A stretch of DNA of 64,000 bases from an uncultured Bacteroidales bacterium (GTDB taxonomy: Bacteria; Bacteroidota; Bacteroidia; Bacteroidales; VadinHA17). The stretch is from assembly GCA_963789465.1 (NCBI GenBank), contig CAWBLL010000009.1:406087-470086 (forward strand). Reading direction: 5' to 3'. The notes under the pieces are model-generated. The model searched no databases. It had not been told where the DNA came from and saw nothing but the letters and a program-made list of their open reading frames with translations. This document shows, one piece after another, positions 3,553-49,375 of this stretch (positions within the stretch are counted from its first letter, which is position 1; each line of letters begins with the position of its first letter). Made by a program: the position numbers and the translations under genes.

Positions 3553-4560
3553 TTATTTTTTCAGCGCATCGGCTACCTTGTTTTTCAGCTCATCGTACAA
3601 TTCGGGATTGTCTCTGAGTATTTGTTTTACGGCATCACGCCCCTGTCCGAGTTTAGTGTCCCCGTAACTGAACCATGAGCCACTCTTTTTGATAATATCA
3701 AAGTCGACGCCCAGATCAACAATTTCACCAGCCTGGGATATTCCCTCGCCGTAAAGAATGTCAAAATCAGCTTTTCTAAATGGGGGAGCAAGTTTATTCT
3801 TGACAATTTTTACCCTTGTCCTGCTTCCTACAATCTCTTCGCCATCCTTTATCTGATTGGTCCTGCGTATATCGAGTCTGACAGAAGCATAGAACTTCAG
3901 TGCATTTCCACCGGTCGTTGTTTCGGGGTTGCCGAACACAACGCCTATTTTGTCCCTGAGCTGATTGATAAAGACACAAGAGGTATTGGTCTTGTTAATA
4001 TTTGCTGTGAGTTTCCTCAATGCCTGTGACATCAGCCTTGCCTGAAGGCCCATTTTGGAATCGCCCATTTCGCCTTCTATTTCAGCTTTTGGGGTCAGGG
4101 CAGCCACAGAGTCTATGACGATAATGTCCAACGCTCCTGATCTTATGAGGTTGTCGGTTATTTCCAGAGCCTGTTCTCCATTATCGGGCTGGGAAATAAG
4201 AAGATTTTCGACATCTACTCCCAGTTTTTCTGCGTAATTACGGTCGAATGTGTGCTCAGCATCAATTATAGCAGCAATTCCCCCATTTTTCTGGGCTTCT
4301 GCGATGGCATGTATTGCAAGTGTTGTTTTTCCCGATGCTTCAGGTCCGTATATCTCTATCACCCTTCCTCTTGGCAAACCGCCGATACCCAGGGCAGCGT
4401 CGAGTCCGATCGACCCTGAAGAAATGACCTGTACATTATCTATGGCATGGTCTCCAAGCTTCATAATGGTCCCCTTGCCAAAGTCCTTCTCAATCTTCCC
4501 AAGAGTAACTTCAAGGGCTTTAAGCTTCTCCTTGTTTATTTCTTTGCGTTCAATGTTCAT
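3553..4560 (-). CDS. recA: Recombinase RecA
   Basis: Walker [20 protein letters not shown]. Typical full-length RecA sequence of 335 aa. Confidence 0.97.
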
Positions 4561-4573
4561 ATTATTGGGTTTA

Positions 4574-5035
4574 TTATTTATACAAACTGAAAATCTGCTC
4601 CGTATGGCCGTCAGTATTGACCTTCCCGATGATTTTTCCGATCATTCCCTTTTCATCTATGATGAATGTCGTCCTTATTACTCCCATGTAAGTTTTACCA
4701 TAATTTTTTTTCTCGCCCCATACCCCATAGTCATTCAAAATCTTTTTTGAGGTGTCGGCGATAAGCGGAAAGGGGAGGGAAAATTTTCCTGCAAAGCCCA
4801 GGTGTGATTTTTCACTGTCGGGGCTCACACCTATCACGGCAAAACCCTGTTTAAGCAATGAATCGTAGTTATCACGCAGATTGCATGCTTCAGCAGTGCA
4901 CCCCGGAGTATTGTCTTTCGGATAGAAATATAAGACTACCTTTCTGCCGGCAAAATCAGTCAGTTTAATTGTATTGCCATTTTGATCAATACCTTCAAAA
5001 TAGGGAGCTTTAGATCCTTCTTTTAATTGTGTCAT
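4574..5035 (-). CDS. bcp: Thioredoxin-dependent peroxiredoxin Bcp
   Basis: [16 protein letters not shown] peroxidatic/resolving Cys motif. 153 aa. Confidence 0.9.
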
Positions 5036-17858: not shown

Positions 17859-19269
17859 GTGAGAAGAAGAAAAGAGCAGCCCTTACTTGAAAAAGTAAGA
17901 ATTACTGATATTGCCTCCGAGGGCAATGCGCTGGCCAGGGTTGAAAATATGGTGGTATTTGTACCGATGCTTATTCCTGGCGATATTGTTGATATACGCA
18001 TCATAAGGAAAAGGAAAAAATTCCTGGAAGGAAGAGTGGTAAGGTTTCACGAATATTCGCCGCTGAGGATAGCTCCGCGGTGTGATCATTTCGGGACCTG
18101 CGGAGGGTGCCGGTGGCAGCATCTTCCCTATAATCTGCAGCTTCAGTATAAGCAAAAGCAGGTATCTGACAACCTGACAAGGATCGGCAGGATAAGCCTG
18201 AACGGGTTTAATCCTATCATAGGGTCTAAGGATGAATATCTGTACAGGAATAAACTTGAATTTACCTTTTCGGACAGCAGGTGGCGCACTGAGGAAGAGC
18301 TTGCTTCAGGTGTTGAATTTGTAAAGGAAAATGCCCTTGGTTTTCATATACCCGGGCTGTTCGACAAAGTACTTGATATACAACGATGCCATCTTCAACC
18401 TGAGCCTTCAAATGCCATACGGAATGCCGTCAGGGATTATGCTCTGAGAAATGAACTGGATTTTTTTGACCTCAGGGAACAAAAAGGATTTCTCAGAAAC
18501 CTTGTTGTGCGCAATTCCATGTCAGGCAATGTTATGGTAATTGTGGTTTTCTTTAAGGATGATCCTGCGAAGAGGGAGGGACTGCTGGATTTTCTGGGTT
18601 CCGAATTTCCTCAGATAACATCACTATGGTATGTTATAAATTCTAAGAAGAATGATTCGCTAAATGATCAGACCCCTATACTTTACAAGGGTGAAGACCA
18701 TCTATACGAGGAGATGGACGGCCTGAAATTCAGGATTGGGCCGAAATCATTCTACCAGACAAATACCAGGCAGGCACTTGAACTATACCGTGTTGTAAAA
18801 GATTATGCCGCCCTTTCCGGCAGCGAGACTGTTTATGACCTTTACACCGGGACAGGAACCATTGCCGCATATCTTGCCAGGGTCCGCAGGGAAAGTCATT
18901 GGTATAGAGTATGTGGAGGAAGCGGTCAGCGATGCCATGGCAAATGCTTCACTTAATAATATCCGCAATACCTTCTTTTTTGCCGGAGACATGAAAGATA
19001 TCCTGAATGAGGATTTCATTAATTCTAATGGAAAGCCGGATATCATTATCACCGACCCGCCGAGAGCGGGCATGCATGCGGATGTGATCGCTGCAATTCT
19101 TAAGGCCTCACCTGCCGGAATTGTCTACGTAAGCTGTAATCCTGCAACACAGGCAAGGGATATCCTGCTGCTTTCTCAAGATTATAATGTAGAAAAAATA
19201 CAGCCCGTCGATATGTTCCCTCATACCCATCACGTGGAAAATATCGTACTTCTGAAACGAAATCATTGA
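17859..19269 (+). pseudogene. rlmD: 23S rRNA (uracil-5-)-methyltransferase RlmD/RumA family, split by a 1-nt insertion (or a sequencing error)
   Basis: TRAM domain. Fe-S cysteines CDHFGTCGGCRWQH. SAM motif DLYTGTGTIAAYLAR in frame A, continuing as SAGKVIGIEYVEEAV...DPPRAGMH...YVSCNPAT in frame B. The frames join if the GGG at 18880-18882 is read as GG. Confidence 0.85.
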
Positions 19270-19317
19270 TCTCAAAGGCAAGGGAGGTATGGAATATTTA
19301 AAATTAGTGTATATTTA

Positions 19318-20157
19318 TTGGCCGATTGCACAAATTTCAAGATGTCTGTTACCAAACAAATAGAACCTGATTATTTGTCACAAATCCCTGATAGAGGGAT
19401 TGATGATCACATTGCCAGCCTCAGGTATGCCGGTATGATACAGAATGCCCTTATGCCGGATCCCCGTTTCTTGAGGGGTTACCTTCAGGAGTTTTTCGTT
19501 CTTTTTTTGCCCCGTGATATTGTGAGCGGAGATTTCTATTATGCTTTTACCAACAGGCAGAAAATGTGCCTTGCTGCCGGCGATTGTACAGGACATGGCG
19601 TACCGGGGGCGTTGCTAAGCATTCTCGGGATCAGTTTCCTCAATGAAATATTACAATCCGGAGTCAACCTCAATGCAAACAGGGTACTTAACCTGATGCG
19701 TGAGAAAGTTATGAAGGCGCTGCATCAGACAGGCTATAGCTCCAAGACAAAGGACAGTATAGATATAGGGCTCTGCATCGTGGATTGTTTCACAGGGAAA
19801 ATGCAATACTCCGGTGCGAACAGGCCGCTTATTATGCTGAGGGACGGAGAACTTACGGAATTCAAGCCGGATAAGATGACCATCGGGGTAGCTCCTCTTA
19901 AGGAAACACCCTTTACAAATATTACAATAGATACATTGCCAGGTGATTCATTTTATCTCTTCTCGGACGGATTCTCAGATCAGTTTGGTGAAATAACAAA
20001 TAAGAAATTCAAGTATAAACAGTTTAAAAAACTTATTGAGTCATTCAAAGATCTCACAATGTCAGAGCAGAAAGAGTATTTTGAAAAAGCATTCATGGAC
20101 TGGAAAGGCAATACCCAGCAGGTTGATGACGTTCTGGTTTTCGGGTTTAAACTTTAA
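19318..20157 (+). CDS. Stand-alone PP2C / SpoIIE-family serine phosphatase with no sensor domain
   Basis: Motifs IQNALMPD, VSGDFYY, AAGDCTGHGVPGALLS, LFSDGFSDQ and VDDVLVFGFKL. The likely real start is the ATG at 19342 (MSVTKQ...). Confidence 0.85.
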   Translation: MADCTNFKMSVTKQIEPDYLSQIPDRGIDDHIASLRYAGMIQNALMPDPRFLRGYLQEFFVLFLPRDIVSGDFYYAFTNRQKMCLAAGDCTGHGVPGALLSILGISFLNEILQSGVNLNANRVLNLMREKVMKALHQTGYSSKTKDSIDIGLCIVDCFTGKMQYSGANRPLIMLRDGELTEFKPDKMTIGVAPLKETPFTNITIDTLPGDSFYLFSDGFSDQFGEITNKKFKYKQFKKLIESFKDLTMSEQKEYFEKAFMDWKGNTQQVDDVLVFGFKL

Positions 20158-20168
20158 CATGTAAAATC

Positions 20169-22457
20169 ATGATGAGGCTTATAGCTTTCAGAATCAGAAA
20201 TTTCAGATCAATTGTCGATACAGGCTGGCAGAACCTTTCACCCGATAATATCACCTGCCTCATAGGACAGAACGAATCAGGAAAGACATCTGTGCTTGAA
20301 GCCCTGAAGGTTTTTCATTCCGGGATCATTTCGGAAGATGTTCTCAGGAGCGATCTTTCGTTGCCTGAGGTAAGCTGCAGGTTCTCGATCCCTGAAGGCT
20401 GGCTGCTTAAAATTACTGAAAATCCCGGACCCGAACTGACTGAACTGCTTGCACGACTTGATCAGCTGGAACTCACCAGGAAATGGCTTCAGGATTTTTC
20501 ATCGGTTATAAGTGTAAGTGGAGCCATAAGTCAATATCTTGATTCACTGGATAATGCGTGGAGTCTGTATCTTACCGATGTATCTTCAAAACTGGAAAAT
20601 GAGTTGAATGACATCCGGGAGCATGAAGACATTCTTGCAAGGCTTACCGAAGAAGAATCAATACTCAGGTCGCAGCTTTCTTCTGATAATGTGTGGTCCA
20701 GGTTCATCAGGTTTTTCAGGAAGAGAAGTACGGAAAATGCCCGGCGCCCTGATGATAAGTCCGAGAATATGAATAGCAGGATGAGTAGTATAAAAAGGGA
20801 GAAAGAAAAGGTAATTTCTGAACTGGCAGAGAAGCAGGTTATTAAAAGGGTAGGAGATAAATGGAAGAAGCTCCGGGAGAAATATTATTCGCTGGATAAT
20901 CATCTGATGGAACTTTCGGCCAGGCTTGAGGAGAGGCACCAGAAAATGACACTGCTTATGAAACCTATAGATGATGAGAACGATTCGGAATGGAAAAGCG
21001 TCATTAACGACTTCCGAAAGACAAGAAGCGAGAGAGATCAGAAAAAGGCTGAGATGGACCGACAGGTTGCATTGTCGGGATACATTATCGATGGGATATC
21101 TGAAATGGTTGCAGAACAGAAGGTAGATAAAATAATCGATTCATACAGGTCGCAGTATAACAGTGAAATACTGGGCAGAAAGTATTTTGCCAGTTGTCCC
21201 GTATTTGAACTGTTCGAAGATTTTGGCAGCCTCCTGCCTAACAGGATCGACATGGGAGATATCATTTCAGGTAATGAACAGGTTGAAGGATATAAGGCAG
21301 CAAGAAATTTTCTGTCGATAGCTCAGCTCGATTATTCATTCTTTCAACAGCCTTCCAGTCGTATACTGAAACAAAAGATTGAAAACCTGAATTATAATCT
21401 GACAAGAAATTTTCATGATTTCTGGCAACAGTCAATCGGCAGTAACAATAAGATCCACATTCAATTTGAGCTGGAACATTATAACGCATCCTATGGTCCA
21501 AAGGCCGGTAAACCATACCTGGAATTCTGGATCAAGGATGAAGGGGAAAGACTCTATCCCAAGCAGAGAAGCAGGGGAGTAAGATGGTTCCTCTCTTTCT
21601 ATATGGAGCTTAAAGCCTCCGCAAACAACAGCAATAAGCAGCTTATCCTGCTTGTCGATGAACCTGGTGTCAGCCTTCATGCCAGAGCACAGGAAGATGT
21701 TCTAAAGGTATTTGATGATATAAAGGACAAGATCCAGGTCATATATACAACCCATTCACCTCATCTGGTTGAAATTAACAAGCTTCACCGTGTCCTTGCC
21801 GTTCAGAGGGACGATCTCGACAACATGAGGAGCAATACCAGGATCCTTGACCCTTTGAGATTGTCACTGGCATCGCCGGATACCCTGACACCTCTGCAGA
21901 ATATCCTGGGAAATCCAATGGCAGGTGAAGGTTTTTCGGATAAAAGAGTGAACCTGATAGTAAATGATACCGGTTCATTCTATATGCTGAACGCAATAAT
22001 TCTCCTTACAGGTTTCAAAGGACAAATTTGTGTGATACCCTCAACGAATGTATCTTCCATTCCACTGTTATGCAATATTCTGATGGGGTGGGGTATGGAC
22101 TTTGCGGTCCTTATATTTGAGAATGATGAAGAGGTGGAAATAGCCGAAATGGTCAGCAATACAGTTTACAGAACCGAAACCGGGGAGAAGGAGATTATTA
22201 TAAGGGTTCCGGATTCCTTTCTGAATGCGGAAGATCTGTTGTCGACTCTCGATTTCAAAAATTTTATCCTGAACAGCAGGGAAGGGATAACTGTTCCAAA
22301 CTCAGTTTATATAAAGGAAAAAGAGCTCCCCAGGAATTTTATGCTGAGCAGATTTCTCAACAATGTAAAGGAGGGCAGGATCAAGCCCGGGGATCTTGAT
22401 GAAGAGACTACGGAGAATTTCAGGCTTATCACGGAACTGCTGCGGGAGCTTAAATAA
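20169..22457 (+). CDS. SMC/OLD-like ABC-type ATPase (AAA_15/21/23-like) with a ~430-aa insertion containing a coiled coil and a ~170-aa C-terminal domain (possible degenerate Toprim)
   Basis: N-terminus RLIAFRIRNFRSIVDTGW...LIGQNESGKTS (Walker A, aa 33-41). Charged heptad-rich region at aa ~130-330. Signature-like RSRGVRWFLSFY (aa ~466-478). Walker B LILLVDEPG (aa 492-500). H-loop YTTHSP (aa ~526-531). C-terminal segment NLIVNDTGSFY ... AVLIFENDEE. Starts 11 nt after the PP2C stop. Confidence 0.75.
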   Translation: MMRLIAFRIRNFRSIVDTGWQNLSPDNITCLIGQNESGKTSVLEALKVFHSGIISEDVLRSDLSLPEVSCRFSIPEGWLLKITENPGPELTELLARLDQLELTRKWLQDFSSVISVSGAISQYLDSLDNAWSLYLTDVSSKLENELNDIREHEDILARLTEEESILRSQLSSDNVWSRFIRFFRKRSTENARRPDDKSENMNSRMSSIKREKEKVISELAEKQVIKRVGDKWKKLREKYYSLDNHLMELSARLEERHQKMTLLMKPIDDENDSEWKSVINDFRKTRSERDQKKAEMDRQVALSGYIIDGISEMVAEQKVDKIIDSYRSQYNSEILGRKYFASCPVFELFEDFGSLLPNRIDMGDIISGNEQVEGYKAARNFLSIAQLDYSFFQQPSSRILKQKIENLNYNLTRNFHDFWQQSIGSNNKIHIQFELEHYNASYGPKAGKPYLEFWIKDEGERLYPKQRSRGVRWFLSFYMELKASANNSNKQLILLVDEPGVSLHARAQEDVLKVFDDIKDKIQVIYTTHSPHLVEINKLHRVLAVQRDDLDNMRSNTRILDPLRLSLASPDTLTPLQNILGNPMAGEGFSDKRVNLIVNDTGSFYMLNAIILLTGFKGQICVIPSTNVSSIPLLCNILMGWGMDFAVLIFENDEEVEIAEMVSNTVYRTETGEKEIIIRVPDSFLNAEDLLSTLDFKNFILNSREGITVPNSVYIKEKELPRNFMLSRFLNNVKEGRIKPGDLDEETTENFRLITELLRELK

Positions 22458-22470
22458 AGATTTGATTTAT

Positions 22471-22501
22471 TTTGCGCTTTATCCATGTTTTTCTACATTT
22501 G
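22471..22501 (+). promoter_or_regulatory. Candidate Bacteroidota promoter: -33 TTTG (22471-22474), 19-nt spacer, -7 TACATTTG (22494-22501), driving the tRNA-Ser locus
   Basis: Both elements match the Bacteroides-type consensus (TTTG, about 19 nt, TAnnTTTG). Located 26 nt upstream of the tRNA-like fragment. Confidence 0.45.
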
Positions 22502-22526
22502 TCGCGCATTGTGGAGTTTAGAGAAA

Positions 22527-22584
22527 GGCGAGATGGGTGAGTGGCTTAAACCAGTCCCGATGGATCGGGACTAAACTGACGTAT
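22527..22584 (+). pseudogene. Truncated tRNA-Ser-like 5' half with a hairpin replacing the anticodon region
   Basis: 22530-22554 (gagatgggtgagtggcttaaaccag) is identical to 22611-22635 of the intact tRNA. Then a 16-nt palindrome tcccgatggatcggga replaces cagtttg. Then ctaaactgAcgtat versus ctaaactgCcgtat. No T-arm or 3' acceptor strand follows. Confidence 0.6.
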
Positions 22585-22607
22585 CACAATAGAGTTCATA
22601 TTTTACT

Positions 22608-22695
<88 letters not shown>

Positions 22696-22700
22696 CTTCG

Positions 22701-23934: not shown

Positions 23935-25047
23935 ATGAGAAAGAGCTGGAGTAGTGTGCTGATTATTTTTGCCGTTGCAGGATCTATACCCCTGCTTATC
24001 TTTTTTTTAATCCGGATTACCCCGAATCCGCCTGTCTTAGTGATGGACCATGCCAGAAAGAAACTCTCAAAAGCTGGTGCTGCCAGGGCCGATACATATT
24101 CAAAACGACTCTATGCAGAGGCAAAAAATCTTTATGATTCGGCAATATTTAACTGGCAAAGGGAAAATAAAAGATTTCTTTTCGCCCGTGATTATCAAAA
24201 AGTGGCCAGCTTTGCAGAACTCTCCGCAAAAAAATCTACAGAAGCAGCCGACAACTCCATCAGCAGCACGACAATCCTTAAAAGCAGCATAATACAAAAA
24301 ATCGACACCCTCGACAATATCGTTGCCGATTTAAATAAGTTCTTTAAGAACTATCCTCTTGATTCAGAAACAATACGGCGTATCTCGAAGGGTAAGATGC
24401 TTCTGGAAGAAGCCAGAGTAGATTATGTGAAGGGTGAATACCTAAAATCCAACAGGAAACTGACCGATTCGGAATACCTTCTTTTTACATCGCACGACAA
24501 CGCAACCACAAACCTGAAAAACTATTTTAATTCTTATCCGACCTGGAAAAAATGGGTAAACGCCACAATTAAAGAATCAGAAAGAAATGGGGATTATTCA
24601 ATAATTATTGATAAATTTTCACGTAAATGTTTTGTCTATCAAAAGGGTACTAAAAAGTATGAGTTTATTGCTGAACTGGGAGCAAACTGGGTCGGTGATA
24701 AAAGATATAGGGGTGATAAGGCAACCCCGGAGGGAATGTATAAAGTGGCGAAAAAAATCGATGGTGGTAAAACAAAATATTATAAAGCCCTTTTGCTCGA
24801 TTATCCAAATGATGAGGATAAAAGGCATTTTAAATCCGATATCACAAATGGATTGTTGCCCGCTGATGCAGCTATCGGAGGGCTCATCGAGATTCATGGT
24901 AACGGTGGAAAAGGAATTGACTGGACAGAAGGCTGCATCGCACTAACCGACAGTGAAATTGAACTGGTATATAAAAAAGTAAGGATAGGCACTCCTGTTA
25001 CAATAGTAGGCTCAATTGTTGATCTGAAAAGTGCTGTTAACAGATAA
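23935..25047 (+). CDS. L,D-transpeptidase (YkuD domain), membrane-anchored, with an N-terminal helical DUF4398-like module
   Basis: N-terminal TM helix. KAGAARADTYSKRLYAEAKNLYDSA helical motif. C-terminal IEIHGNGGKGIDWTEGCIALTD (His...Cys YkuD catalytic motif). Confidence 0.85.
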   Translation: MRKSWSSVLIIFAVAGSIPLLIFFLIRITPNPPVLVMDHARKKLSKAGAARADTYSKRLYAEAKNLYDSAIFNWQRENKRFLFARDYQKVASFAELSAKKSTEAADNSISSTTILKSSIIQKIDTLDNIVADLNKFFKNYPLDSETIRRISKGKMLLEEARVDYVKGEYLKSNRKLTDSEYLLFTSHDNATTNLKNYFNSYPTWKKWVNATIKESERNGDYSIIIDKFSRKCFVYQKGTKKYEFIAELGANWVGDKRYRGDKATPEGMYKVAKKIDGGKTKYYKALLLDYPNDEDKRHFKSDITNGLLPADAAIGGLIEIHGNGGKGIDWTEGCIALTDSEIELVYKKVRIGTPVTIVGSIVDLKSAVNR

Positions 25048-25057
25048 AATGGTTTAA

Positions 25058-25870
25058 ATGGGAAATGACAATATCATAAACAAGGAAGCTAAAACAGAAG
25101 CAGAGAAGAAACATTCAGTTGATTCTGAGGAAGATTATGTAGATCTTCTCCATATCCTGGACTCCTTCTGGAAAAAATTGGTGGCAAACAGGACACTTAT
25201 CGTGGCCATGAGAAGGATTTTTGTTTTTTTCGTAACCCTGCTCATTGCGTTCTCTGCGGTAATGTTCGTTCTTTATTTTGTTCCGGTTTTAACTGAAATG
25301 GTTTCGGGTTCCAGTACACTGATCTCAAGCGATAAGGGGCCAGGACAGAGTGCCGGCTATAAAAAGCAGATATCCCTGGTAAACAGGGACATTCAAAGGA
25401 TGTCAAGAAAATATAATGCTTATACTACAGGCCAGTCATATATTGTGATCAATACCACTGACAACAGGTTTTATCTCTTCAGGAATAAAATACTGATCAG
25501 GGAAGGGTTCTGCAGTTCAGGCAGCTATACAATGCTTCAAACGGCAGGCGACAAACAATGGGTATTCAAAACCCCTAAAGGTAAATACTGGATCCGGGGC
25601 AAAACGACAAACCCTGTTTGGAAAAAGCCTGACTGGGCATTTGTGGAAGAAGGTTTGCCCATACCTTCCATAAACGATAACTCGAGATTTGAATATGGAG
25701 TCCTTGGCGATTACGCCCTGTCTATAGGTGACGGGTATATGATACATGGAACAATTTACAAGCGTTTTCTTGGAATGCCCGTTACCCACGGCTGTGTCAG
25801 ATTGAATGATGAGGATCTGAAAGTTATATACAATAATCTTAATGTTGGTTCGAAAGTTTATATTTTCTGA
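25058..25870 (+). CDS. L,D-transpeptidase (YkuD domain), membrane-anchored
   Basis: TM helix IFVFFVTLLIAFSAVMFVLYFV. Catalytic YMIHGTIYKRFLGMPVTHGCVRLND. Confidence 0.85.
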   Translation: MGNDNIINKEAKTEAEKKHSVDSEEDYVDLLHILDSFWKKLVANRTLIVAMRRIFVFFVTLLIAFSAVMFVLYFVPVLTEMVSGSSTLISSDKGPGQSAGYKKQISLVNRDIQRMSRKYNAYTTGQSYIVINTTDNRFYLFRNKILIREGFCSSGSYTMLQTAGDKQWVFKTPKGKYWIRGKTTNPVWKKPDWAFVEEGLPIPSINDNSRFEYGVLGDYALSIGDGYMIHGTIYKRFLGMPVTHGCVRLNDEDLKVIYNNLNVGSKVYIF

Positions 25871-28543: not shown

Positions 28544-28671
28544 AAATTACTTCCTTGTTCGTTTCACTCACAAGGTATTTTTATTTTCAGATGGCTTCAC
28601 TCATGCGAGCATGGCTCAGCTATCTGAAAATAAAAATCCCGCAGCTGGCTGCGGGAGTAATTTGGAGTTGC
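28536..28671. repeat. 136-nt nested inverted-repeat element: a 15-bp outer stem enclosing three hairpins
   Basis: gcaactccaaattac (28536-28550) is the perfect reverse complement of gtaatttggagttgc (28657-28671). Inside: ccttgt/acaagg (28553-28575); atttttattttcagat / atctgaaaataaaaat (28577-28592 / 28622-28637, 16 bp perfect); cccgcag/ctgcggg (28638-28655). Confidence 0.75.
28627..28655 (-). terminator. Intrinsic terminator of tRNA-Ser(CGA), possibly bidirectional
   Basis: On the minus strand: cccgcag-ccag-ctgcggg followed by atttttatttt, starting about 15 nt after the tRNA 3' end. Confidence 0.65.
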
Positions 28672-28759
28672 GGAGAGAGGGGGATTCGAACCCCCGGTTC
28701 GCCGGAAGGCGAACAACGGTTTTCGAGACCGCCGCATTCGACCACTCTGCCATCTCTCC
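28671..28759 (-). tRNA. tRNA-Ser (anticodon CGA), class II
   Basis: Manual fold of the reverse complement: acceptor GGAGAGA/TCTCTCC; D-stem GCA/TGC; anticodon stem GCGGT/ACCGT with loop CTCGAAA; variable arm GTTCGCC-TTCC-GGCGAAC; T-arm GGGGG-TTCGAAT-CCCCC; discriminator G. 89 nt. Confidence 0.93.
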
Positions 28760-33020: not shown

Positions 33021-34964
33021 CTATTTTGAGACCTTTTTGATAAAAATATCCTCCGGATATCCTTTTCTCATAAGATCCAGCCTGTGAGCAAATGCCTCTT
33101 CTCTTGTCTGAAACATACCTGTGGTATAGCGGTAAAACCTATCCTGATCATTATACATCGCCCTTATGTCTGGAATGTATTTGAAATAACTGATATCCAC
33201 AGGATTATACAAAGCCATTACCTGTACGGTATAATAAAGTATGTCTGAGTCTTTGATACTCTCATCACCAAGATCATTTACATTCAGGTTTTTAATAAGA
33301 GTACTTGTATCAACCTGGGCAATCTTTGGTATCTCATTAAGATTTATTTTGTCATAAGTAACAGGTACTCTTCGTGATGAAGGATCTCTGACAAGCACGA
33401 TGTCAATATTCATTGTTGTTTTAATGTTTGCACTTGTAATTGTAGTATCAATTGACTGTGGAAAATAACCGGGTCCGGTATAGAGGAGCCTGTACTTCCT
33501 GGGGATCACATAAAAGGCGTACAATCCAGTGAGCTTGTTTGGATAGCTGACGTCAACAGTATCATTTGAGGTAAGGTCAATAAGATGAATGCTGAAAGTT
33601 TTGTCGAGTGCCATCAAGGTATCGGATAGTCCCAGTTTACCATTGACTTCCGCAAACTGACCGGTTCCGGCTCCGCCAAGGATCAGATAAAAGATGTCAC
33701 TTTTCTTGTATCCGGTTGTCATGGCATAATAGGCATTTTTCCCATTATTCCAGGGCTGGAAAAACTTGTCATCATCACTGGTATTGATCGGATAACCTAT
33801 ATTTTCAGGTGTATCCCAGTCAGATCCGTTTTTCCGGCTTAAGAAGATATCGTATCCCCCCATTGAATTATGTCCTTCAGATGAAAAATAAAGATCTGAA
33901 TTATTCTCAGTAATGAACGGAGTATCCTCATTGAATTGTGTATTGATAGTTGATCCCAGATTTACCGCAGGCCCCCAGTCGCCAGTAGCATCCAGCTCGG
34001 AAACATAAATGTCAAGCTTTCCCTCTCCTCCGTCCCTGTTGCTGGTAAAGTACAATTTTTTCCCGTCGGCAGATATTGCAGCATGTGATTCATAAAACCT
34101 GGTGTTGATATTCCTGTTGAGTTTTTTTATCGGGGTCCAGGAGTCGTTCTTAAAAGTTGAGGAATAGATCGCTCCGTCATAATTGTCTGTTTTATAGAGA
34201 AACAACTCAGTGCCATCCCTGTTCAGGGAGCAGGTAGAACAGTCTTCCCCGGCTTTAAGTTCAGCTGTTATATCCAGCGGAGTCAGCCATTTTCCATTCT
34301 GTTTTCTTGAGCAATAGATCGCATTTACAAGTCCATGGCTTTCAGTATACGCTATTGTATTGCCGTCAAAACTTACTGCCGGATTCTCATTTATGGTACC
34401 ATGGCTGAATTCACTGCCCAGCAGTTTTTTATTTAGAGCAACCGGTTTTTCCATCAGTTTCATGGCATTTTTACATGCCTGGATCTGCTGATCGATGAAC
34501 CCGGTATTCTTCATCCCCCCTTTGCTTTCTGTCTCCTCTACAAGCTTTTTGAACTTTTCCAGTGTACTTAAGCCTTTTTCAAGATCATTGTTTGTCATGT
34601 ACGCCTTGGCGAGGGAAAAGTAGGCTTCAAGAGGTGCTCTTTTTTCGTTATACGATGAGGTTTTGGAATCATAACTTGCGTCCTTTACAGCTTCCTCAAG
34701 ATAAGGAATAGCTTTTTTCTTTTCCCCGGGGATTTGCAGATAACATGTTCCTATCTTGTACTTGATGTTCATATTATCAGGAGAATCCAGAAGCAGGTAT
34801 TGCTGGTTGGCAAGCTCATATTCTTCATAAAGGTAATATGTCTCAGCTTGTTTGAAGATTTTTTTGTTTTCGGCAGACGATTGGGCAGAGGCAACATATG
34901 GAAACATTACCAGAATCAGCGACCGGAGAATGGAGCTTATGATTTTTACTCTGAGATTGCCCAT
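33021..34964 (-). CDS. Secreted TPR + PD40 (TolB-like beta-propeller) protein with Ig-like/CarboxypepD_reg-like module and C-terminal SPOR-like domain (paralogue 3)
   Basis: Signal peptide. TPR block YKIGTCYLQIPGEKKKAIPYLEEAV. PD40 repeats (SADGKKLYFTSNRDGGEGKLDIYVS, etc.). C-terminus YYTVQVMALYNP...YRYTTGMFQTREEAFAHRLDLMRKGYPEDIFIKKV. Confidence 0.75.
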   Translation of the reverse strand: MGNLRVKIISSILRSLILVMFPYVASAQSSAENKKIFKQAETYYLYEEYELANQQYLLLDSPDNMNIKYKIGTCYLQIPGEKKKAIPYLEEAVKDASYDSKTSSYNEKRAPLEAYFSLAKAYMTNNDLEKGLSTLEKFKKLVEETESKGGMKNTGFIDQQIQACKNAMKLMEKPVALNKKLLGSEFSHGTINENPAVSFDGNTIAYTESHGLVNAIYCSRKQNGKWLTPLDITAELKAGEDCSTCSLNRDGTELFLYKTDNYDGAIYSSTFKNDSWTPIKKLNRNINTRFYESHAAISADGKKLYFTSNRDGGEGKLDIYVSELDATGDWGPAVNLGSTINTQFNEDTPFITENNSDLYFSSEGHNSMGGYDIFLSRKNGSDWDTPENIGYPINTSDDDKFFQPWNNGKNAYYAMTTGYKKSDIFYLILGGAGTGQFAEVNGKLGLSDTLMALDKTFSIHLIDLTSNDTVDVSYPNKLTGLYAFYVIPRKYRLLYTGPGYFPQSIDTTITSANIKTTMNIDIVLVRDPSSRRVPVTYDKINLNEIPKIAQVDTSTLIKNLNVNDLGDESIKDSDILYYTVQVMALYNPVDISYFKYIPDIRAMYNDQDRFYRYTTGMFQTREEAFAHRLDLMRKGYPEDIFIKKVSK

Positions 34965-35016
34965 TAAAACAAATTTAGTGATATAAAAATATTATTTCAA
35001 CTGAACCAGATCGGAT

Positions 35017-36291
35017 TTACTTGAAAGTTATTTTATAGATATCTTCTTTCCCATATCCGGCAGCGTCTTTCATGATTGCATAATACCCTGATTTTCCATC
35101 TCCCACAGGCATGAAAAAAAGTTCATCATCGGGTGTGTTAAGCGGGTATCCCAGGTTTTTTGGTTTGCTCCACAGCCCGTTCGTCTGCATATCAGACCTG
35201 AAGAGATCATAGCCTCCAATATTTTCATGACCCTGTGAGCTGAAGAAAAGAGTCCTTGCCTTATTTATCAGAAAGGGGCGGTCTTCATTGAAGGGTGTAT
35301 TTATTTCTGGTCCCAGATTGACAGGAGGTCCCCAGTCACCATTGACTTTTCGTGTAATATAGAGATCAAGCCCGCCAAATCCTCCGGGTCTGTCAGAGGC
35401 AAATATCAGTTGCTCGCCATCATCAGAGAGAAAGGCATGAGATTCCCAGTATTTTGTATTTATGTTCTTATTGAGCTTGACAGTCTTTGACCAGGTATCG
35501 CCATTTAGTGAACTGTAATATATGTCACTGTTATAGTTATCGTCCCTTGAAAGGTACAGCTTTTTTCCATCTGCAGAGAGGCAGGAGATATAGAAATCGC
35601 CGTCAGACTGCAATTCAGGTGTAATATTGACAGGGGAAGTCCATTTCCCGTTTACCAGCTTTGAGAACATTATGGCATCATAGAATTTGAGAGAAACCAT
35701 ATAGGCGAAGGATTTGCCATCGGCTGAAATAAGAGGATTGAAATTGGATTTGTCGTCATTGAACTGGTCGCCCATGTTCTCTTCTGTAAAAGAGACAGGT
35801 TTTGCGATCAGGGTTTTTGCCATATCACAGACCTCGATCTCATGTTTGACGAAATCCATGTTTTCATGATCGTCAGGCAGCAGAGTACCTGCATACTTAA
35901 TAAAGGTCTCTTTGGCTTTGTCAAACTTGTAATTTATCCTGTAGGCAGTCGCAAGATAGAACAAAGCATCGTAAGGAGCAGCCGTCTGGCTGATGGTTCC
36001 CTCCTTATGCCTGGCAGACATATTTTTGCATGCAGCTTCAAGATAGCTTACAGAGAGATTCTTTTCCCCCGGAATATTAAGATAACAGAGGCCTATGCAA
36101 AATGCCAGGTTGGCATTATCCGGCATCTTTTCATATACCTGCATATAATCGCCAAGGGCATCAGAATAATCCCCCCTCATCAGAAAATATTCTGCTTCAA
36201 GGAAAGTAGTCTGGAGTTTATTGTCTTCCTGTGCGAATAAGGAGGCAGTAAGGATTCCCATCAGAATAAAACATACAAATCTTTTGCTCAT
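35017..36291 (-). CDS. Secreted TPR + PD40 beta-propeller protein with a minimal architecture (paralogue 2)
   Basis: Signal peptide. FCIGLCYLNIPGEKNLSVSYLEAA TPR block. PD40 repeats (SDDGEQLIFASDRPGGFGGLDLYIT, etc.). 424 aa with no extra C-terminal module. Confidence 0.75.
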   Translation of the reverse strand: MSKRFVCFILMGILTASLFAQEDNKLQTTFLEAEYFLMRGDYSDALGDYMQVYEKMPDNANLAFCIGLCYLNIPGEKNLSVSYLEAACKNMSARHKEGTISQTAAPYDALFYLATAYRINYKFDKAKETFIKYAGTLLPDDHENMDFVKHEIEVCDMAKTLIAKPVSFTEENMGDQFNDDKSNFNPLISADGKSFAYMVSLKFYDAIMFSKLVNGKWTSPVNITPELQSDGDFYISCLSADGKKLYLSRDDNYNSDIYYSSLNGDTWSKTVKLNKNINTKYWESHAFLSDDGEQLIFASDRPGGFGGLDLYITRKVNGDWGPPVNLGPEINTPFNEDRPFLINKARTLFFSSQGHENIGGYDLFRSDMQTNGLWSKPKNLGYPLNTPDDELFFMPVGDGKSGYYAIMKDAAGYGKEDIYKITFK

Positions 36292-36391
36292 ACTGAAAGA
36301 TTTTGATGAACAAATTTATTAAAAATAATGGCATTAGAAGTACATATAACCCCATTATTCATTATAGCAAGTTTATTATATGCTTGTCAAC

Positions 36392-39250
36392 TTATTTCTT
36401 CTCCTCCCTTTTCTTTTTTCTTCCAAAGGTTATGTAAAGGAAAATTGCCGAGACTCCGATGACTATCCATAATAGCCAAAGCTTGCCACCCCTGGCTGTG
36501 CCCGCAGGTGTTTTGATCATTTCAGCCGGGATGTTCTTTGCAACTATCATATTTGCAATAGATTTAAAGACAGATTCTTCAGGGAACCTGACCTTGTCTT
36601 TGGAAGTTATAAGGAACAAAATCAGATCATAAGGGGATTTGATCTTTTCCTTTTTAAGATCAACCGATTTCAGGGCTGAGGCAAAAGGTTCTTCTGAAAT
36701 ATTCGCCAGGTCATTAAGAAAGTCCTTTGTTTTTGTGTTGGGCAGAGATCCTATCGCTGAAAACATTTGAGAGAGCATTTCAGGTGTCATACCACGGTTT
36801 ATCGATTCATCATAGAAAGAGTTAAGCCATTTTCCCCTGAACTTGATATTTGCCTGGTCATTCGTAGTCACGGACTGCCGCAGCAGTTCTCCATTTTCAG
36901 ATGTCTCGCTGTATGTTAATATCTTATCCTTGATTACGGTAATTGCGGGATCGACTTCTGTAAGGATTAAACCGGCAAGGTCGTCCAGATCTTTCGCTGT
37001 GATCCGCCCATTGCTCTTATCAGTGACATATCTTTGCAGATCCGCCCATGATTTGAGATTATCCTTGTATATATCGGCTCCGGAAAGAATATTTTTGAGT
37101 TCCCCTTCGGAATAATTGGCAAGAATGTCTGTCGCTGATTGTGACAGGACATTATCCGTAAACGCCACCCGGAGGGCGAGTTTGTCAATATCTTCGGTCC
37201 TTATGTTCTTTTCAGGGGCTTTGGTTTTCAGGAATGACAACATTTCATCACTTTTTGTAAATACCTGTTTCCCGACGCCGGATTCTGATATAAGATCTGA
37301 AATATTTTTATCGGCATGCTTCTTCAGCAGGGCAAGGTATGCTTCTGTCTGTCTCCTGGAAATAATACTGCCGTATTCCGGTCGACTTACTGTTTCCGTC
37401 GCCTGACCTTTTTCTCTTTTTATAAATACGTCTGCCATTGCAGTATTGCTGAACCTGTCAGTGAGTTTGAAAACGACCCTGTTATTTCCGGGTCTGGGTG
37501 CTATCTTGTAATTAAAGGCGGGAGATGTCATCATATACTTTTTTGAGGATATCACCTTATCACCGGCCCAGATTTCCACGTTAAGTGCTGACAGAGGTTC
37601 CACTTTAAGGGGTATTATTATGGTATCGCCTTTTGTGACTGTGATATTCCTCTCTCCCTCAACGGAGAGATCTGCCGTATGGTCGTTTCTGGAGAGGATA
37701 ATTCCTGGAATTTCAACGTTATCGGAAGGATGGGAAAGAGGCAGATTCAGGTCACGTGTAACTTTTTCACCTCCATAGCCTTCATAATCCAGTTTGTAAT
37801 CACCCTGGGGTACATTGAACTGGTATTCTGTTGTCTCAGGATTCGTATAGACGATCATTGATTGTCCGGGGCTCGTGTTATTTTTCACATCTATTCTGAC
37901 ACTGTCCTTGTAGATGCCCATTAGATCATCAACACTGGCAGTTCCGCTGATTATGAATTTTCTGGGATGCTCATCCGAAAAGATCTCAACACGGTAGATA
38001 TCAAGCTTTCCATATCCCTCAGGTGTATTCATGGCATAGTAACCCTGGTATTTTCCAATGGAAGGTTTAAAGAAAACATCATCATCAGTTGTATTCAACG
38101 GATATCCTTCATTTACGGGCTCAGACCACTCTCCGTCAGCTTTCAGTGTGGAAGAGAATATATCATAGCCACCCATGTTGAAATGTCCTCTGGAACTGAA
38201 AAAAAGTGTTTTATCATCTTTGCTGAGGAATGGTGTTTCCTCGTTGTAGGCCGTATTGACAACTGCCCCGAGGTTAGAGGGTTCTCCCCAGTCACCTGTG
38301 CTGTCTCTTTCGGAGACATATATGTCAAGACCGCCGAAAGTTCCTTTTCTGTTGCTTGTAAAGTAGAGTTTTTTATTATCATGAGATATCGTAGCATGCG
38401 ATTCCCAGTATTTAGTGTTGATATTGTCATTCAGTTTGACAAGGGGGGACCATGTATCGTTTTCAAATGTCGATGAATATATTATACCATCATAATCTGC
38501 AGAACTGTAGAGATACAGCGTTTTTCCGTCAGAGGAGAGCGACGTGGGATAAATATCCCTGTCCACTTTCAGGATTTCATTCATGTTTTGTGGAACAGAC
38601 CACTGCCCGTCACTTTTCACTGAATAAAGCAGCGCCTCATAAAATGGTTCGGTTTTTGAAAAGACTATCATTTTCTCATCATCGGATACCACCGGATTAA
38701 ATTCTGACGTGCTCTCATTTATAATACTGCCCAGGTTATGTTTTATAATGAATATTGGTCTGGACATAAGTTCCTTGGCGTTCCGGCAGGACTGTACCTG
38801 AAGGTCAACAACCGTTGTATCATATATTTCAGGGTTGAGATTTTTCTTGAAGAGGCTGTAAGTCTCAATTGCTTTATCGAGCTGATTGTTTATTCTGTAT
38901 GCATTTGCAAGGTAATAGAGAGCATCATATGGGGCTCCTGATTCCTTGAATTTACCCTCTTTGTATTTTGGGTCAATATTTTTGACTGCATCTTCAAGAT
39001 AGCGAATGGCTATTTCCTTCTCCCCCGGGGTATTAAGGTAGCATTGGCCGATCCTGTATTTGAAATTAGCATTATCGGGAAATCGTTGAAGCAGTTGAAT
39101 ATATAAAGGCAAGGCATCCTGATAAGCTTCGAAAAGGATCCAGCTCTCAGCGTCGTAAAAATTGTTCTTGATTTCTGCCTTCGACTGGGAAAACAGATTA
39201 TTACTGGTTAGTGTAACCAGAAGAGACAACAATAGAACTATCCTTTTCAT
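36392..39250 (-). CDS. Secreted TPR + PD40 beta-propeller protein with two Ig-like modules, a ~300-aa helical repeat region and a C-terminal TM anchor (paralogue 1)
   Basis: Signal peptide. YRIGQCYLNTPGEKEIAIRYLEDAV. PD40 repeats. C-terminal LWLLWIVIGVSAIFLYITFGRKKKREEKK (TM helix plus basic tail). Confidence 0.75.
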   Translation of the reverse strand: MKRIVLLLSLLVTLTSNNLFSQSKAEIKNNFYDAESWILFEAYQDALPLYIQLLQRFPDNANFKYRIGQCYLNTPGEKEIAIRYLEDAVKNIDPKYKEGKFKESGAPYDALYYLANAYRINNQLDKAIETYSLFKKNLNPEIYDTTVVDLQVQSCRNAKELMSRPIFIIKHNLGSIINESTSEFNPVVSDDEKMIVFSKTEPFYEALLYSVKSDGQWSVPQNMNEILKVDRDIYPTSLSSDGKTLYLYSSADYDGIIYSSTFENDTWSPLVKLNDNINTKYWESHATISHDNKKLYFTSNRKGTFGGLDIYVSERDSTGDWGEPSNLGAVVNTAYNEETPFLSKDDKTLFFSSRGHFNMGGYDIFSSTLKADGEWSEPVNEGYPLNTTDDDVFFKPSIGKYQGYYAMNTPEGYGKLDIYRVEIFSDEHPRKFIISGTASVDDLMGIYKDSVRIDVKNNTSPGQSMIVYTNPETTEYQFNVPQGDYKLDYEGYGGEKVTRDLNLPLSHPSDNVEIPGIILSRNDHTADLSVEGERNITVTKGDTIIIPLKVEPLSALNVEIWAGDKVISSKKYMMTSPAFNYKIAPRPGNNRVVFKLTDRFSNTAMADVFIKREKGQATETVSRPEYGSIISRRQTEAYLALLKKHADKNISDLISESGVGKQVFTKSDEMLSFLKTKAPEKNIRTEDIDKLALRVAFTDNVLSQSATDILANYSEGELKNILSGADIYKDNLKSWADLQRYVTDKSNGRITAKDLDDLAGLILTEVDPAITVIKDKILTYSETSENGELLRQSVTTNDQANIKFRGKWLNSFYDESINRGMTPEMLSQMFSAIGSLPNTKTKDFLNDLANISEEPFASALKSVDLKKEKIKSPYDLILFLITSKDKVRFPEESVFKSIANMIVAKNIPAEMIKTPAGTARGGKLWLLWIVIGVSAIFLYITFGRKKKREEKK

Positions 39251-47344: not shown

Positions 47345-48313
47345 TTGCAACGAAACAGGAAATATGTATTCGACTTTGCTGATCTACAATTCAAGCAGAT
47401 TAAGCTGCCTTGGAAAATAAAGATATTCCGATCATTCCTGTGGATTGCTTTATCTGTTCTGGTCACCTTATTCTACGGCTTTATTTTCAGGAATATTTTT
47501 GGTTCTCCCAAGGAGAAGCTGCTCAATATGCAGCTTGAAAACATCAAGCTGGAGTATTCTATTGTAGGTCATCAGCTGGATAATTCAGTTGCCATGCTCC
47601 ATGGATTCCGGTTGTCTGATGACAGACGCTATCGTCCGATACTTGACATGGACAGTGTACCTGAATCTTATAGAAAAGCCGGATATGGCGGCGTTGACAG
47701 GTTCCGGGATCTTACCGGCTATATGAATTCTGATTTGCTGATTTCATACAGGTCAAAGCTTGAAGCGATTAAAAATCAGGCGAATATTCAAATGGAATCT
47801 TTCAGGTCGATAGGCGAGATGGCAGTTGAATGGAAGAGAGAGGTTGACCATCAGCCGATGATAAGTCCTGTAGATGTTAAATTCCGTCTTGGTGACGGCT
47901 TTAAGTTCAGGGAAGTTCATCCCGTGCTTGGAACGCCCAGGATGCACTATGGTCAGGATTTTTCTGTTCCATATGGTACAGATGTCCATGCTACCGGTGA
48001 CGGAACAATAATAGAATCGGGATGGAACTCGGGAGGTTTCGGAAATTACATAGTTATTGATCATGGTTACGGGCTGCAGACTACATATGGTCACCTGAGC
48101 CAGATTAAAGTCTCGAAAGGAATGAATGTAAAAAGAGGCGACCTCATAGGCCTGAGCGGAAATACCGGAACATCTTCCGGGCCGCATTTGCATTACCAGA
48201 TCGATCAGTTCGGACAACACAAAAATCCGGTAAACTTTTTTAACAATGATATTTCGGCGGATGAGTATAATGAGATGATCCAGACACTGGGATCAAAATC
48301 CAAATTCAGGTAG
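47345..48313 (+). CDS. M23 family metallopeptidase (LytM-type), membrane-anchored
   Basis: HYGQDF ... GNTGTSSGPHLHYQI. N-terminal TM helix. The TTG start is inferred because the N-terminus (KYVFDFADLQFKQIKL) aligns with the paralogue's KYKFNPDSLSYDRIRL. Confidence 0.8.
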   Translation: MQRNRKYVFDFADLQFKQIKLPWKIKIFRSFLWIALSVLVTLFYGFIFRNIFGSPKEKLLNMQLENIKLEYSIVGHQLDNSVAMLHGFRLSDDRRYRPILDMDSVPESYRKAGYGGVDRFRDLTGYMNSDLLISYRSKLEAIKNQANIQMESFRSIGEMAVEWKREVDHQPMISPVDVKFRLGDGFKFREVHPVLGTPRMHYGQDFSVPYGTDVHATGDGTIIESGWNSGGFGNYIVIDHGYGLQTTYGHLSQIKVSKGMNVKRGDLIGLSGNTGTSSGPHLHYQIDQFGQHKNPVNFFNNDISADEYNEMIQTLGSKSKFR

Positions 48314-48403
48314 TAAGCTGCCCGAATTATCATCCCCAGATTAATCACCACTTCCATTCATTGAATTTCATAATTTTCAGAATTGAATTATCTTTGACAA
48401 ATT

Positions 48404-49375
48404 ATGACACCTACAAAATATAAATTCAATCCGGATTCTCTAAGCTATGACAGGATAAGGCTTGGAATCGGTGAAATTCTATTAAGATTTCTGGCTTATT
48501 TTGTTGGTTCAATGCTTGTTGCCGTGCTTTATTGGGTCATCTTTGCGGCATTCTTCGACTCACCCAAGGAAAAGGCCCTTGAACGTGAACTGGAACAGCT
48601 GACAATACAGTACGACCTTATTAACCGGGAGATGGGAAACGTTGAAAATGTTCTGGACGACCTCCAGAAGACGGATGATAATCTCTACCGTACCATTTTT
48701 GAAGCAGAGCCAATTCCCCCAACTCTAAGGAATGGAGGGGTGGGAGGTGTTAACAGGTATAAATCGCTCGAGGGATATGAGAATTCAAGCCTTGTGATAG
48801 AAACCGCGAACCGGCTTGATAAGATCAGAAAAAAAGTTTATGTTCAGTCAAAGTCATTCGATGCCCTCATTGACCTGGCAAAAAATAAGGGAGATATGCT
48901 CAGATGTGTACCTGCTATCATTCCTGTCTCAAGCAAGGATCTGACCAGAATAGCATCTGGTTTTGGCCTGAGGATTCATCCCATATACAAGATTATAAAA
49001 TTTCATTACGGTATGGATTTTACTGCTCCGGCCGGAACTGATGTATATGCAACGGGTAACGGAGTTGTTGCTGAGGTTGAGTCATCCCAAAGAGGCCTCG
49101 GAAAACATATTATTATTGATCATGGATTCGGATACTCAAGTATCTATGCTCACCTGAGCAATTTTAACGTGAGGGTCGGCCAGAAGGTACAAAGGGGAGA
49201 CATTATAGGATTTGTTGGTAATACAGGAACTTCAATAGCAAATCACCTTCATTATGAGATAAAGCTCAATGGAGTGAATGTTGATCCGGTCAATTACTAT
49301 TTTGAAGATCTGACTCCTTCAGAATATGAAAGATTGATAGAGATCGCATCCAAAACCGGACAGTCTTTTGATTAG
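48404..49375 (+). CDS. M23 family metallopeptidase (tandem paralogue)
   Basis: HYGMDF ... GNTGTSIANHLHYEI. Same architecture as the upstream gene. Confidence 0.85.
   Translation: MTPTKYKFNPDSLSYDRIRLGIGEILLRFLAYFVGSMLVAVLYWVIFAAFFDSPKEKALERELEQLTIQYDLINREMGNVENVLDDLQKTDDNLYRTIFEAEPIPPTLRNGGVGGVNRYKSLEGYENSSLVIETANRLDKIRKKVYVQSKSFDALIDLAKNKGDMLRCVPAIIPVSSKDLTRIASGFGLRIHPIYKIIKFHYGMDFTAPAGTDVYATGNGVVAEVESSQRGLGKHIIIDHGFGYSSIYAHLSNFNVRVGQKVQRGDIIGFVGNTGTSIANHLHYEIKLNGVNVDPVNYYFEDLTPSEYERLIEIASKTGQSFD

Follow-up and report, generated by a model that had tools for sequence, protein, structure and literature searches.

Why should a protein phosphatase be encoded directly in front of an ATPase of a type best known from anti-phage systems? 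The question is raised by a stretch of 64,000 nucleotides (64 kb) from an uncultured Bacteroidales bacterium, referred to here as the window, whose positions give all coordinates below. In it, a gene for a PP2C-type phosphatase and a gene for a 762-amino-acid (aa) ABC ATPase of the OLD family lie on the same (+) strand, 11 nucleotides (nt) apart. The original prediction, made from the letters alone, described both open reading frames (ORFs) as they are found here. It read them as a new ATPase-plus-phosphatase module in a defence-type setting, beside a scarred serine tRNA gene. The first part of this reading has held up. The evidence supports a genuine, tightly linked operon that probably encodes a cooperating pair, and a real, previously undescribed module descended from the OLD family. 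The second part has fared less well: the pair is a fixed chromosomal module of the Bacteroidales/Bacteroidota.

How firmly are the two genes linked? Linkage was examined in two sets of loci. The close set comes from a scan of one genome per GTDB species, which returned 238 relatives of the ATPase, all from metagenome-assembled genomes (MAGs) of uncultured Bacteroidales/Bacteroidota; the best 80 of these (L001-L080, 63-85% identity) were examined. The distant set comes from a metagenome scan seeded with distant family members, which gave 80 loci with ATPases 38-44% identical to that of the window. Four loci from contig look-ups were added to it, and the upstream counts use the 79 loci that have at least 900 nt of upstream DNA.

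A PP2C orthologue stands directly upstream of the ATPase gene in every close locus (80/80). The same is true of 75 of the 79 distant loci, where the PP2Cs are 42-55% identical and the spacing between the two genes is mostly 7-30 nt; three of the contig look-ups also have a PP2C upstream. At least five kinds of neighbourhood, unrelated to one another, flank the distant loci (TsaD/AsmA-like, OmpA/TPR, a DnaQ-GIY-YIG exonuclease, SusC-like receptors and adenylosuccinate lyase), and no third gene is linked to the pair across all lineages. Pairwise distances of the PP2C and of the ATPase co-vary (r 0.79).

The family as a whole is larger. A HMMER search of 1.84 billion cluster representatives gave 412 clusters at E <= 1e-30. 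These include relatives of 760-785 aa at 35-44% identity, and also many proteins of 560-650 aa that share residues ~330-760 and do without the coiled-coil insertion described below. The best 120 homologues listed are 71-86% identical to the window ATPase; in length nearly all fall within 757-785 aa, and most within 760-762 aa. The named homologues come from MAGs only, with no cultured organism among them.

Is the combination already known under another name? No named system in PADLOC, Pfam or NCBIfam pairs such an ATPase with a PP2C, and a literature search found no paper linking PP2C with OLD, AAA_15 or Toprim proteins. The sole co-mention that this search turned up is an unrelated figure legend (10.1101/2024.01.29.577857).

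The phosphatase matches the Pfam SpoIIE family (PF07228) at 6.6e-19. All four motifs that had been read from the sequence (SGDFYY, GDCTGHG, SDGFSDQ and DDVLV) are present, and the metal-binding residues D72, D89, D217, D270 and D271 are at least 97% conserved among 133 orthologues. Its top NCBIfam model is SiaA, matched by the C-terminal domain only (160.8 bits, below the 700-bit cut-off of the full-length equivalog). The only strong solved relative is PDB 6K4E, which is matched over the whole domain (E 2.6e-29) and which is the PP2C domain of SiaA from Pseudomonas aeruginosa. The protein stands alone, with no sensor domain, as had been stated. By these sequence measures it is a SiaA-type phosphatase with an intact catalytic site. 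PADLOC has zero matches for it.

The start of the phosphatase gene needs a small adjustment. The mechanical ORF runs from 19318 to 20157 (+) and begins with a TTG codon at 19318. The sole conserved block of the intergenic region between the upstream gene rlmD and the PP2C gene (8 loci aligned) is TGTATATTTA, which lies 25 nt before a conserved ATG. It resembles the -7 promoter element of the Bacteroidetes consensus and is presumably a promoter. Given this block and the conserved ATG at 19339, the most likely product is the 272-aa protein, and the gene pair probably has a promoter of its own.

The ATPase matches Pfam AAA_15 at 7e-26, and AAA_21 as well. Its Walker A, its signature-like motif QRSRGVRWFLSFY, its Walker B and its H-loop were all pointed out beforehand, and they prove invariant in close and distant relatives. 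The PADLOC models AriA, Old, PtuA and GajA match it at 1e-11 to 3e-26. Among sequences of solved structures, the OLD nuclease of Thermus scotoductus (Ts OLD, 6p74) is the best match, and AriA and PtuA are matched too, in each case through the ATPase motifs only. Taken together, the PADLOC, NCBIfam and PDB matches (AriA, Old, PtuA, GajA, retron Eco8, Rad50 and RecF) are limited to the P-loop and to the Walker B/H-loop segments. Because they are confined to such generic ATPase motifs, assignment of the protein to AriA, PtuA, GajA, Old or retron Eco8 was rejected. The broader statement, which places the protein among ABC ATPases of the OLD/GajA/AriA/PtuA type, is supported by AAA_15, PADLOC, the PDB matches and Foldseek, in agreement with the original prediction.

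The charged insertion that had been described as a coiled coil separates the two halves of the ATPase and sits where OLD proteins have their dimerisation domain. AlphaFold2 indeed predicts long helices there (residues 119-179, 196-263, 273-307 and 312-340), with a predicted local distance difference test score (pLDDT) of 66-87 in most 10-residue blocks. The full-length model behind this prediction was built with 15 close homologues and was used for the helical insertion only. The insertion is the least conserved region of the ATPase, and the 560-650-aa relatives have either none or a short one.

The end of the ATPase had been described as a further 170-aa C-terminal domain. The domain exists, but it is better described as a Toprim fold followed by a helical domain of OLD type. 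In the OLD architecture, an ABC ATPase with a helical insertion is followed by a Toprim domain, with a helical domain added in Class 2 (PMC7049728, PMC6755086). An AlphaFold2 model of residues 560-762, made with a diverse alignment, shows four beta-alpha units and then a helical bundle (pLDDT 85.9, predicted template-modelling score 0.81). Compared with the PDB by Foldseek, its top match is the same Thermus scotoductus nuclease, 6p74 (E 3e-3, probability 1.0, template-modelling score (TM) 0.41); GajA structures reach TM ~0.4, and the remaining matches are generic alpha/beta folds. A search of the C-terminal domain profile against PDB sequences returned noise only, and a fold search of the model against the viral structures of BFVD was uninformative.

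The sequence alignment of the family tells more. Most members read NNVILEE ... LPATGA ... vvlDDDxxGr in this segment, that is, the beta1 glutamate, beta2 glycine and beta3 DxD of a Toprim signature. In one canonical relative a weak, sub-threshold match to PF20469 (OLD-like_TOPRIM) falls exactly on it. From the family signature, the C-terminal model and the match to 6p74, an OLD architecture is drawn for the window ATPase, and an OLD-type Toprim fold with a helical domain has moderate support in this modelling.

In the window ATPase and its whole clade, however, the catalytic residues are replaced. N599 stands in place of the beta1 glutamate and F650-E651-N652 in place of DDD, and these substitutes are invariant or nearly so within the clade. 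The Toprim nuclease site therefore appears dead, and the protein most probably no longer cuts nucleic acid. Because the glutamate and DxD are gone, the protein is filed here as an OLD-derived ATPase and not as an OLD nuclease.

Does this decay have anything to do with the phosphatase? Among the distant loci, the beta1 glutamate is lost in 32 that have PP2C and in none that lack it. The glutamate is kept and DxD lost in 31 with PP2C and in one without, L086, which reads DDE and is near-canonical. Both are kept in 12 with PP2C and in three without. PP2C is thus retained by 63 of the 64 relatives that lack the glutamate, DxD or both, L086 being the exception, and in each of the four loci without PP2C the Toprim is canonical or nearly so. 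In two of the latter, L109 (~4317-4509) and L127 (~4821-5001), PP2C is cleanly absent and a gap of ~190 nt precedes an ATPase with canonical Toprim glutamate and DxD. Both share their synteny with the PP2C-bearing loci L093, L097 and L101-103. The most economical account is that PP2C joined a coiled-coil, OLD-type ATPase-nuclease, whose nuclease residues then decayed where PP2C was kept, apparently more than once.

How has the pair been inherited? The 80 closest genomes share a conserved gene order: hydrolase, rlmD, PP2C, ATPase, tRNA-Ser(GCT). Upstream of the pair, rlmD is found in 75 of the 80; of the five loci without it there, two stand at a contig end. The order rlmD-PP2C-ATPase-tRNA-Ser is ancestral. 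Pairwise distances of the ATPase follow those of rlmD (Mantel r 0.80, a value reached by 0 of 999 permutations), and the mean p-distances are 0.287 for the ATPase, 0.286 for rlmD and 0.320 for PP2C. The ratio of non-synonymous to synonymous substitution (dN/dS) is ~0.02-0.07; since dS is saturated for most pairs, these values are rough upper-bound estimates. On these comparisons the pair is inherited vertically at the rate of rlmD, under purifying selection comparable to that on the neighbouring housekeeping gene.

The wider surroundings are of the same kind. In Pfam scans of ~50 window ORFs, every sizeable ORF is either housekeeping or of unknown function, and the genes include miaA, recA, recR, alaS, the type IX secretion genes porV, porU and porP, and peptidoglycan enzymes. 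The scans found no defence or mobile-element gene in the 64 kb, and there is no helicase gene within the window. Beyond the tRNA-Ser, no integrase or defence gene is among the genes sampled in ten other species; those sampled (SusC, fumarase, aconitase, GH43, histidine kinase, PfkB and DegT) are metabolic or belong to polysaccharide utilisation loci (PULs), and they vary by species. When the ATPase was compared by tblastn with 50,697 phage records, one weak partial match came up. The same search of 72,556 plasmids found short-form relatives only, of up to ~32% identity, and no close copy.

The run of housekeeping genes before the pair had been noticed from the start, and it is a conserved synteny. 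Two observations had been named as speaking against a defence-type module: an ATPase found mainly without the PP2C gene, and conserved housekeeping contexts. The ATPase occurs with PP2C (80/80 and 75/79), and its contexts are indeed conserved housekeeping ones. The pair shows neither the patchy or horizontal distribution nor the defence island or mobile element by which defence systems are generally recognised. Vertical inheritance, housekeeping synteny, ancestral adjacency to the tRNA, the lack of close phage or plasmid copies and the dead nuclease site all speak against a defence island.

What could such a pair do? The tentatively preferred reading is an OLD-family ATPase class with a phosphatase output instead of a nuclease, in which the ATPase cooperates with PP2C. 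The ATPase dimer would serve as an ATP-gated sensor or scaffold, like other OLD/Rad50-type heads. The dead Toprim and the helical domain would be retained as a surface to which nucleic acid or protein binds. The sensor-less PP2C would be bound and controlled by the ATPase, and the output would be dephosphorylation of a protein, not cleavage of DNA. The target of PP2C would likely be a partner-switch phosphoprotein of SiaC or STAS type encoded elsewhere, or the ATPase itself. A role in cellular signalling or genome-state surveillance seems more likely than classical mobile anti-phage defence.

A more far-reaching version, which can be entertained with greater doubt, is a swap of effectors in a new OLD-family class that would be widespread in Bacteroidota. 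An immune ATPase-nuclease would have been domesticated, would have gained a SiaA-type PP2C and would have lost its Toprim residues repeatedly, leaving an SMC-like clamp that signals by dephosphorylation in a core function.

A search for the other members of a partner switch gave one lead. In the Pfam scans, none of the ~50 window ORFs matched STAS, SiaC, a GHKL anti-sigma kinase or a Hanks kinase, and so the absence of a STAS, anti-sigma or Ser/Thr kinase partner is borne out by scans and targeted searches alike. A hidden Markov model (HMM) built from 17 SiaC-like proteins found no SiaC in the window or in L001-L080. Searches for SpoIIAA, SpoIIAB and PknB in the window and the 80 closest loci found none, the sensitivity of these queries being limited.

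The lead comes from a lineage of 17 loci (L143, 825-8804; L104, L107, L120 and L128 are further examples), in which SiaC and a sensor phosphatase are encoded near the pair. In loci of this type, a 1121-aa Reg_prop/Y_Y_Y-SpoIIE sensor phosphatase precedes the small PP2C with a 4-nt overlap. Beyond a Peptidase_C26 gene, ~1.1 kb downstream, the opposite strand carries a SiaC-family gene (DUF1987, PF09345, 2.7e-30). In a partner-switching system, the DUF1987 protein SiaC is the substrate that SiaA dephosphorylates, and DUF1987 proteins have been proposed as general modulators of adjacent proteins (PMC8457831). Since no SiaC gene is near the pair in the window's own lineage, the link to SiaC is a lead only.

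Several points weigh against a phosphatase-output module. Physical contact between PP2C and ATPase is putative. The full-length structure model of the ATPase is poor (pLDDT 52.7). The association between Toprim decay and PP2C is not phylogenetically independent. E688 and D695 in the C-terminal helical domain are invariant family-wide, so some residual or altered metal-dependent activity may persist. No gene for a phospho-substrate or kinase was found in the window or the 80 closest loci, and the linkage to SiaC, seen in one lineage and on the opposite strand, may be mere synteny. Finally, the Toprim of E. coli YbjD is dispensable for its anti-phage phenotype, so that Toprim loss alone leaves defence possible (PMC13261556).

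This last point leads to the first alternative, in which the pair is a domesticated but still active anti-phage system, fixed in the chromosome, whose ATPase senses a phage trigger in the manner of AriA, PtuA and GajA and whose PP2C is the effector or the off-switch. Besides the precedent of YbjD (PMC13261556), it draws on the use of this ATPase type by OLD, Gabija, PARIS and Septu and on the synteny break point marked by the adjoining tRNA. Some distant relatives with a canonical Toprim also look mobile or defence-like, being found on plasmids, beside a serine recombinase or overlapped by a Helicase_C+NOV_C gene. The pair itself behaves differently. Its synteny is strict, its rate and tree shape match those of rlmD, and dN/dS does not exceed 0.07, with no diversification seen. 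PADLOC has nothing for PP2C and only generic matches for the ATPase. No defence or mobile gene accompanies the pair in the 64 kb, nor lies beyond the tRNA in the other species sampled, and close copies on phages or plasmids were not found. The pair also sits on the conserved 5' side of the tRNA, not at the 3' site used by integrative elements. An active defence system is therefore unlikely, although not strikingly so.

A second alternative holds that the protein is a chromosome or DNA-maintenance ATPase, RecF/RecN/Rad50-like or Cran1-like, which is itself the substrate of PP2C and is tuned by Ser/Thr phosphorylation. A Rad50/SMC-like head with a long coiled coil, a PP2C with no sensor domain at all, housekeeping neighbours and, in some lineages, nearby genes for SSB or an exonuclease would all suit such a protein, and in Cran1 an OLD ATPase is already known to act in the cell cycle (PMC12796447). 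Yet a kinase is linked to the pair in no lineage examined, and no DNA-repair gene is consistently linked. Cran1 keeps the nuclease residues that the window ATPase has lost, and ATPase relatives with a canonical Toprim and no PP2C occur in the same synteny. This explanation is plainly unlikely.

Fortuitous adjacency of two unrelated genes is very improbable indeed and effectively refuted: the whole region is syntenic in the closest 80 genomes, so that linkage there alone proves little, but the pair is also kept at 38-44% identity, with its short spacing and co-varying distances, through extensive genome rearrangement, which excludes a chance arrangement.

How does the phosphatase-output reading compare with systems already described? 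The nearest architecture is that of the OLD nucleases of Class 1 and Class 2 (P2 Old, Ts OLD 6P74 and Burkholderia OLD), which share the ABC ATPase, the helical insertion and the Toprim; the C-terminal helical domain is shared with Class 2. The window ATPase differs from OLD nucleases in the replaced Toprim glutamate and DxD and in its canonical DE at Walker B. Its ~220-aa coiled-coil insertion is much longer than the four-helix dimerisation domain of OLD. The neighbours differ too. PP2C is obligatory here, whereas Class 1 has no partner gene and Class 2 has a UvrD-like helicase; the window pair is vertically inherited, whereas OLD is mobile.

Other systems pair an ABC ATPase sensor of the same superfamily with a separate effector gene, as in PARIS, Septu/retron PtuAB and Gabija. 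The window pair lacks the mobile or defence context of PARIS, Septu and Gabija. In contrast to OLD Class 2 and Gabija, it has no helicase of UvrD/GajB type and is instead flanked by PP2C and tRNA-Ser. Unlike PARIS, it has no AriB Toprim/DUF4435 gene: its Toprim-like domain is fused and degenerate, and the match to AriA is that of a generic AAA_15 profile. Unlike Septu or retron PtuAB, it has no adjacent HNH PtuB or reverse transcriptase, and the NCBIfam PtuA model scores 35 bits against a cut-off of 500.

On the phosphatase side the comparison is with SiaABCD of Pseudomonas aeruginosa (PMC8457831; 6K4E). The PP2C is of the SiaA subtype, and a SiaC-family gene is linked in one lineage. Unlike SiaA, the window PP2C has no transmembrane or HAMP sensor part; SiaB kinase, SiaC and SiaD cyclase are all missing from the window and from its 80 closest relatives, and an OLD-like ATPase is part of no Sia system.

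The closest conceptual parallel is Cran1, a vertically inherited class 5 OLD ATPase of Sulfolobales that is encoded in a conserved operon and has a role in the cell cycle (PMC12796447). Like Cran1, the window ATPase is an order-level, vertically inherited member of the OLD family in a conserved operon, apparently not for defence. Cran1 differs in being archaeal, in being an active nickase with all nuclease residues and in lacking a phosphatase partner. In sequence the two are not specifically related.

The window lineage spans hundreds of Bacteroidales species, with a decayed nuclease site and an obligatory phosphatase partner. OLD-family ATPases have, to our knowledge, been studied almost solely as anti-phage nucleases, with Cran1 the single vertically inherited cellular example so far. 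A second, bacterial lineage would, if the reading is true, show that OLD-type sensors are exapted into core physiology recurrently. It would also offer a specific example of how an ATPase of immune type can be tied to Ser/Thr phospho-signalling. For annotation, an AAA_15/OLD-like ATPase beside a tRNA is insufficient for calling a defence system.

Table 1. Features of the PP2C-ATPase locus, in window positions.
Feature	Position	Strand	Basis or remark
Promoter-like element TGTATATTTA, Bacteroidetes -7 type (TAnnTTTG-like)	19308..19317	+	Upstream of PP2C
SiaA-type PP2C/SpoIIE phosphatase, 272 aa	19339..20157	+	Pfam, NCBIfam, PDB, conserved Asp, conserved ATG
OLD-family ABC ATPase, 762 aa, with coiled-coil insertion and degenerate Toprim	20169..22457	+	AAA_15, PDB, PADLOC
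Walker A GQNESGKTS, residues 33-41	20265..20291	+	Invariant in close relatives and all 84 metagenomic relatives
Charged helical coiled-coil insertion, residues ~119-340	20523..21188	+	Predicted secondary structure (AlphaFold2)
Signature-like QRSRGVRWFLSFY, Walker B LLVDEP (D497, E498) and H-loop YTTHSP (H529)	21564..21761	+	Invariant columns
Toprim-fold domain (predicted), residues ~594-680	21948..22208	+	AlphaFold2, Foldseek, canonical relatives
C-terminal helical domain (predicted), residues 681-762, with invariant E688, D695 and F729	22209..22454	+	Family alignment, AlphaFold2
Promoter-like element for tRNA-Ser, TTTG ... TACATTTG	22461..22502	+	Nearly invariant in 6 aligned loci
tRNA-like 5' fragment and hairpin	22527..22585	+	Copy of tRNA-Ser acceptor-5' and D-arm
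tRNA-Ser(GCT), ancestral downstream neighbour	22608..22696	+	ARAGORN

What of the tRNA gene behind the pair? Of 60 loci scanned, 49 have the tRNA-Ser(GCT) 60-700 nt behind the ATPase, and six of the 11 others are contigs that end within 330 nt. The original prediction placed the end of the pair just before the tRNA promoter. This is right for the element TTTG ... TACATTTG, which begins a few nt after the ATPase stop codon and whose promoter function we assume from the Bacteroidetes consensus; the tRNA itself starts only 150 nt past the stop.

Between the promoter-like element and the tRNA lies the fragment that had been taken for a scar. It repeats the first ~26 nt of tRNA-Ser(GCT), with one base just upstream differing, and a perfect hairpin, GTCCCGA-TGGA-TCGGGAC, replaces the anticodon region. 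Only the window and the 79%-identical L004 have it, the latter with an extra insertion of ~40 nt; it is absent from L001, L002, L011 and L012. Because the fragment is a 5' part, lies upstream of the tRNA and is shared with a relative at 79% identity, it is not a typical integrase scar. It is separate from the protein module.

The tRNA-Ser is also a break point of synteny and assembly. About 20 of the 80 MAG contigs of the close set end 0.1-0.7 kb past the ATPase gene, at or just beyond the tRNA (L006, L007, L014, L016, L018, L020, L022, L023, L027, L028, L036, L049, L051, L052 and L063, among others). No integrases are visible there, and PULs, tricarboxylic acid cycle enzymes and glycoside hydrolases lie beyond. 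A second serine tRNA, tRNA-Ser(CGA), stands 6 kb downstream at 28670-28759 (-), with a similar position in L002 and L061.

One distant locus has a different partner in front of its ATPase. In L099 (19-4922), the gene before a canonical-Toprim relative encodes a 915-aa Helicase_C + NOV_C protein and overlaps the ATPase gene by 4 nt. The two look like a separate two-gene system of defence type, made of a helicase and an OLD-like protein.

Upstream of the pair, a single frameshift near 18850-18880 breaks the rlmD gene of the window (TRAM and methyltransferase domains, 17859-19269) into two overlapping ORFs, whereas in L001 it is one intact ORF of 476 aa. Either the frameshift is an error of sequencing or assembly, or rlmD has become a pseudogene very recently. 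Elsewhere, the window holds tandem paralogues at 47345-49375, 23935-25870 and 33021-39250; they comprise two M23 peptidases (322 and 323 aa), two YkuD L,D-transpeptidases and three consecutive PD40/TolB-like proteins.

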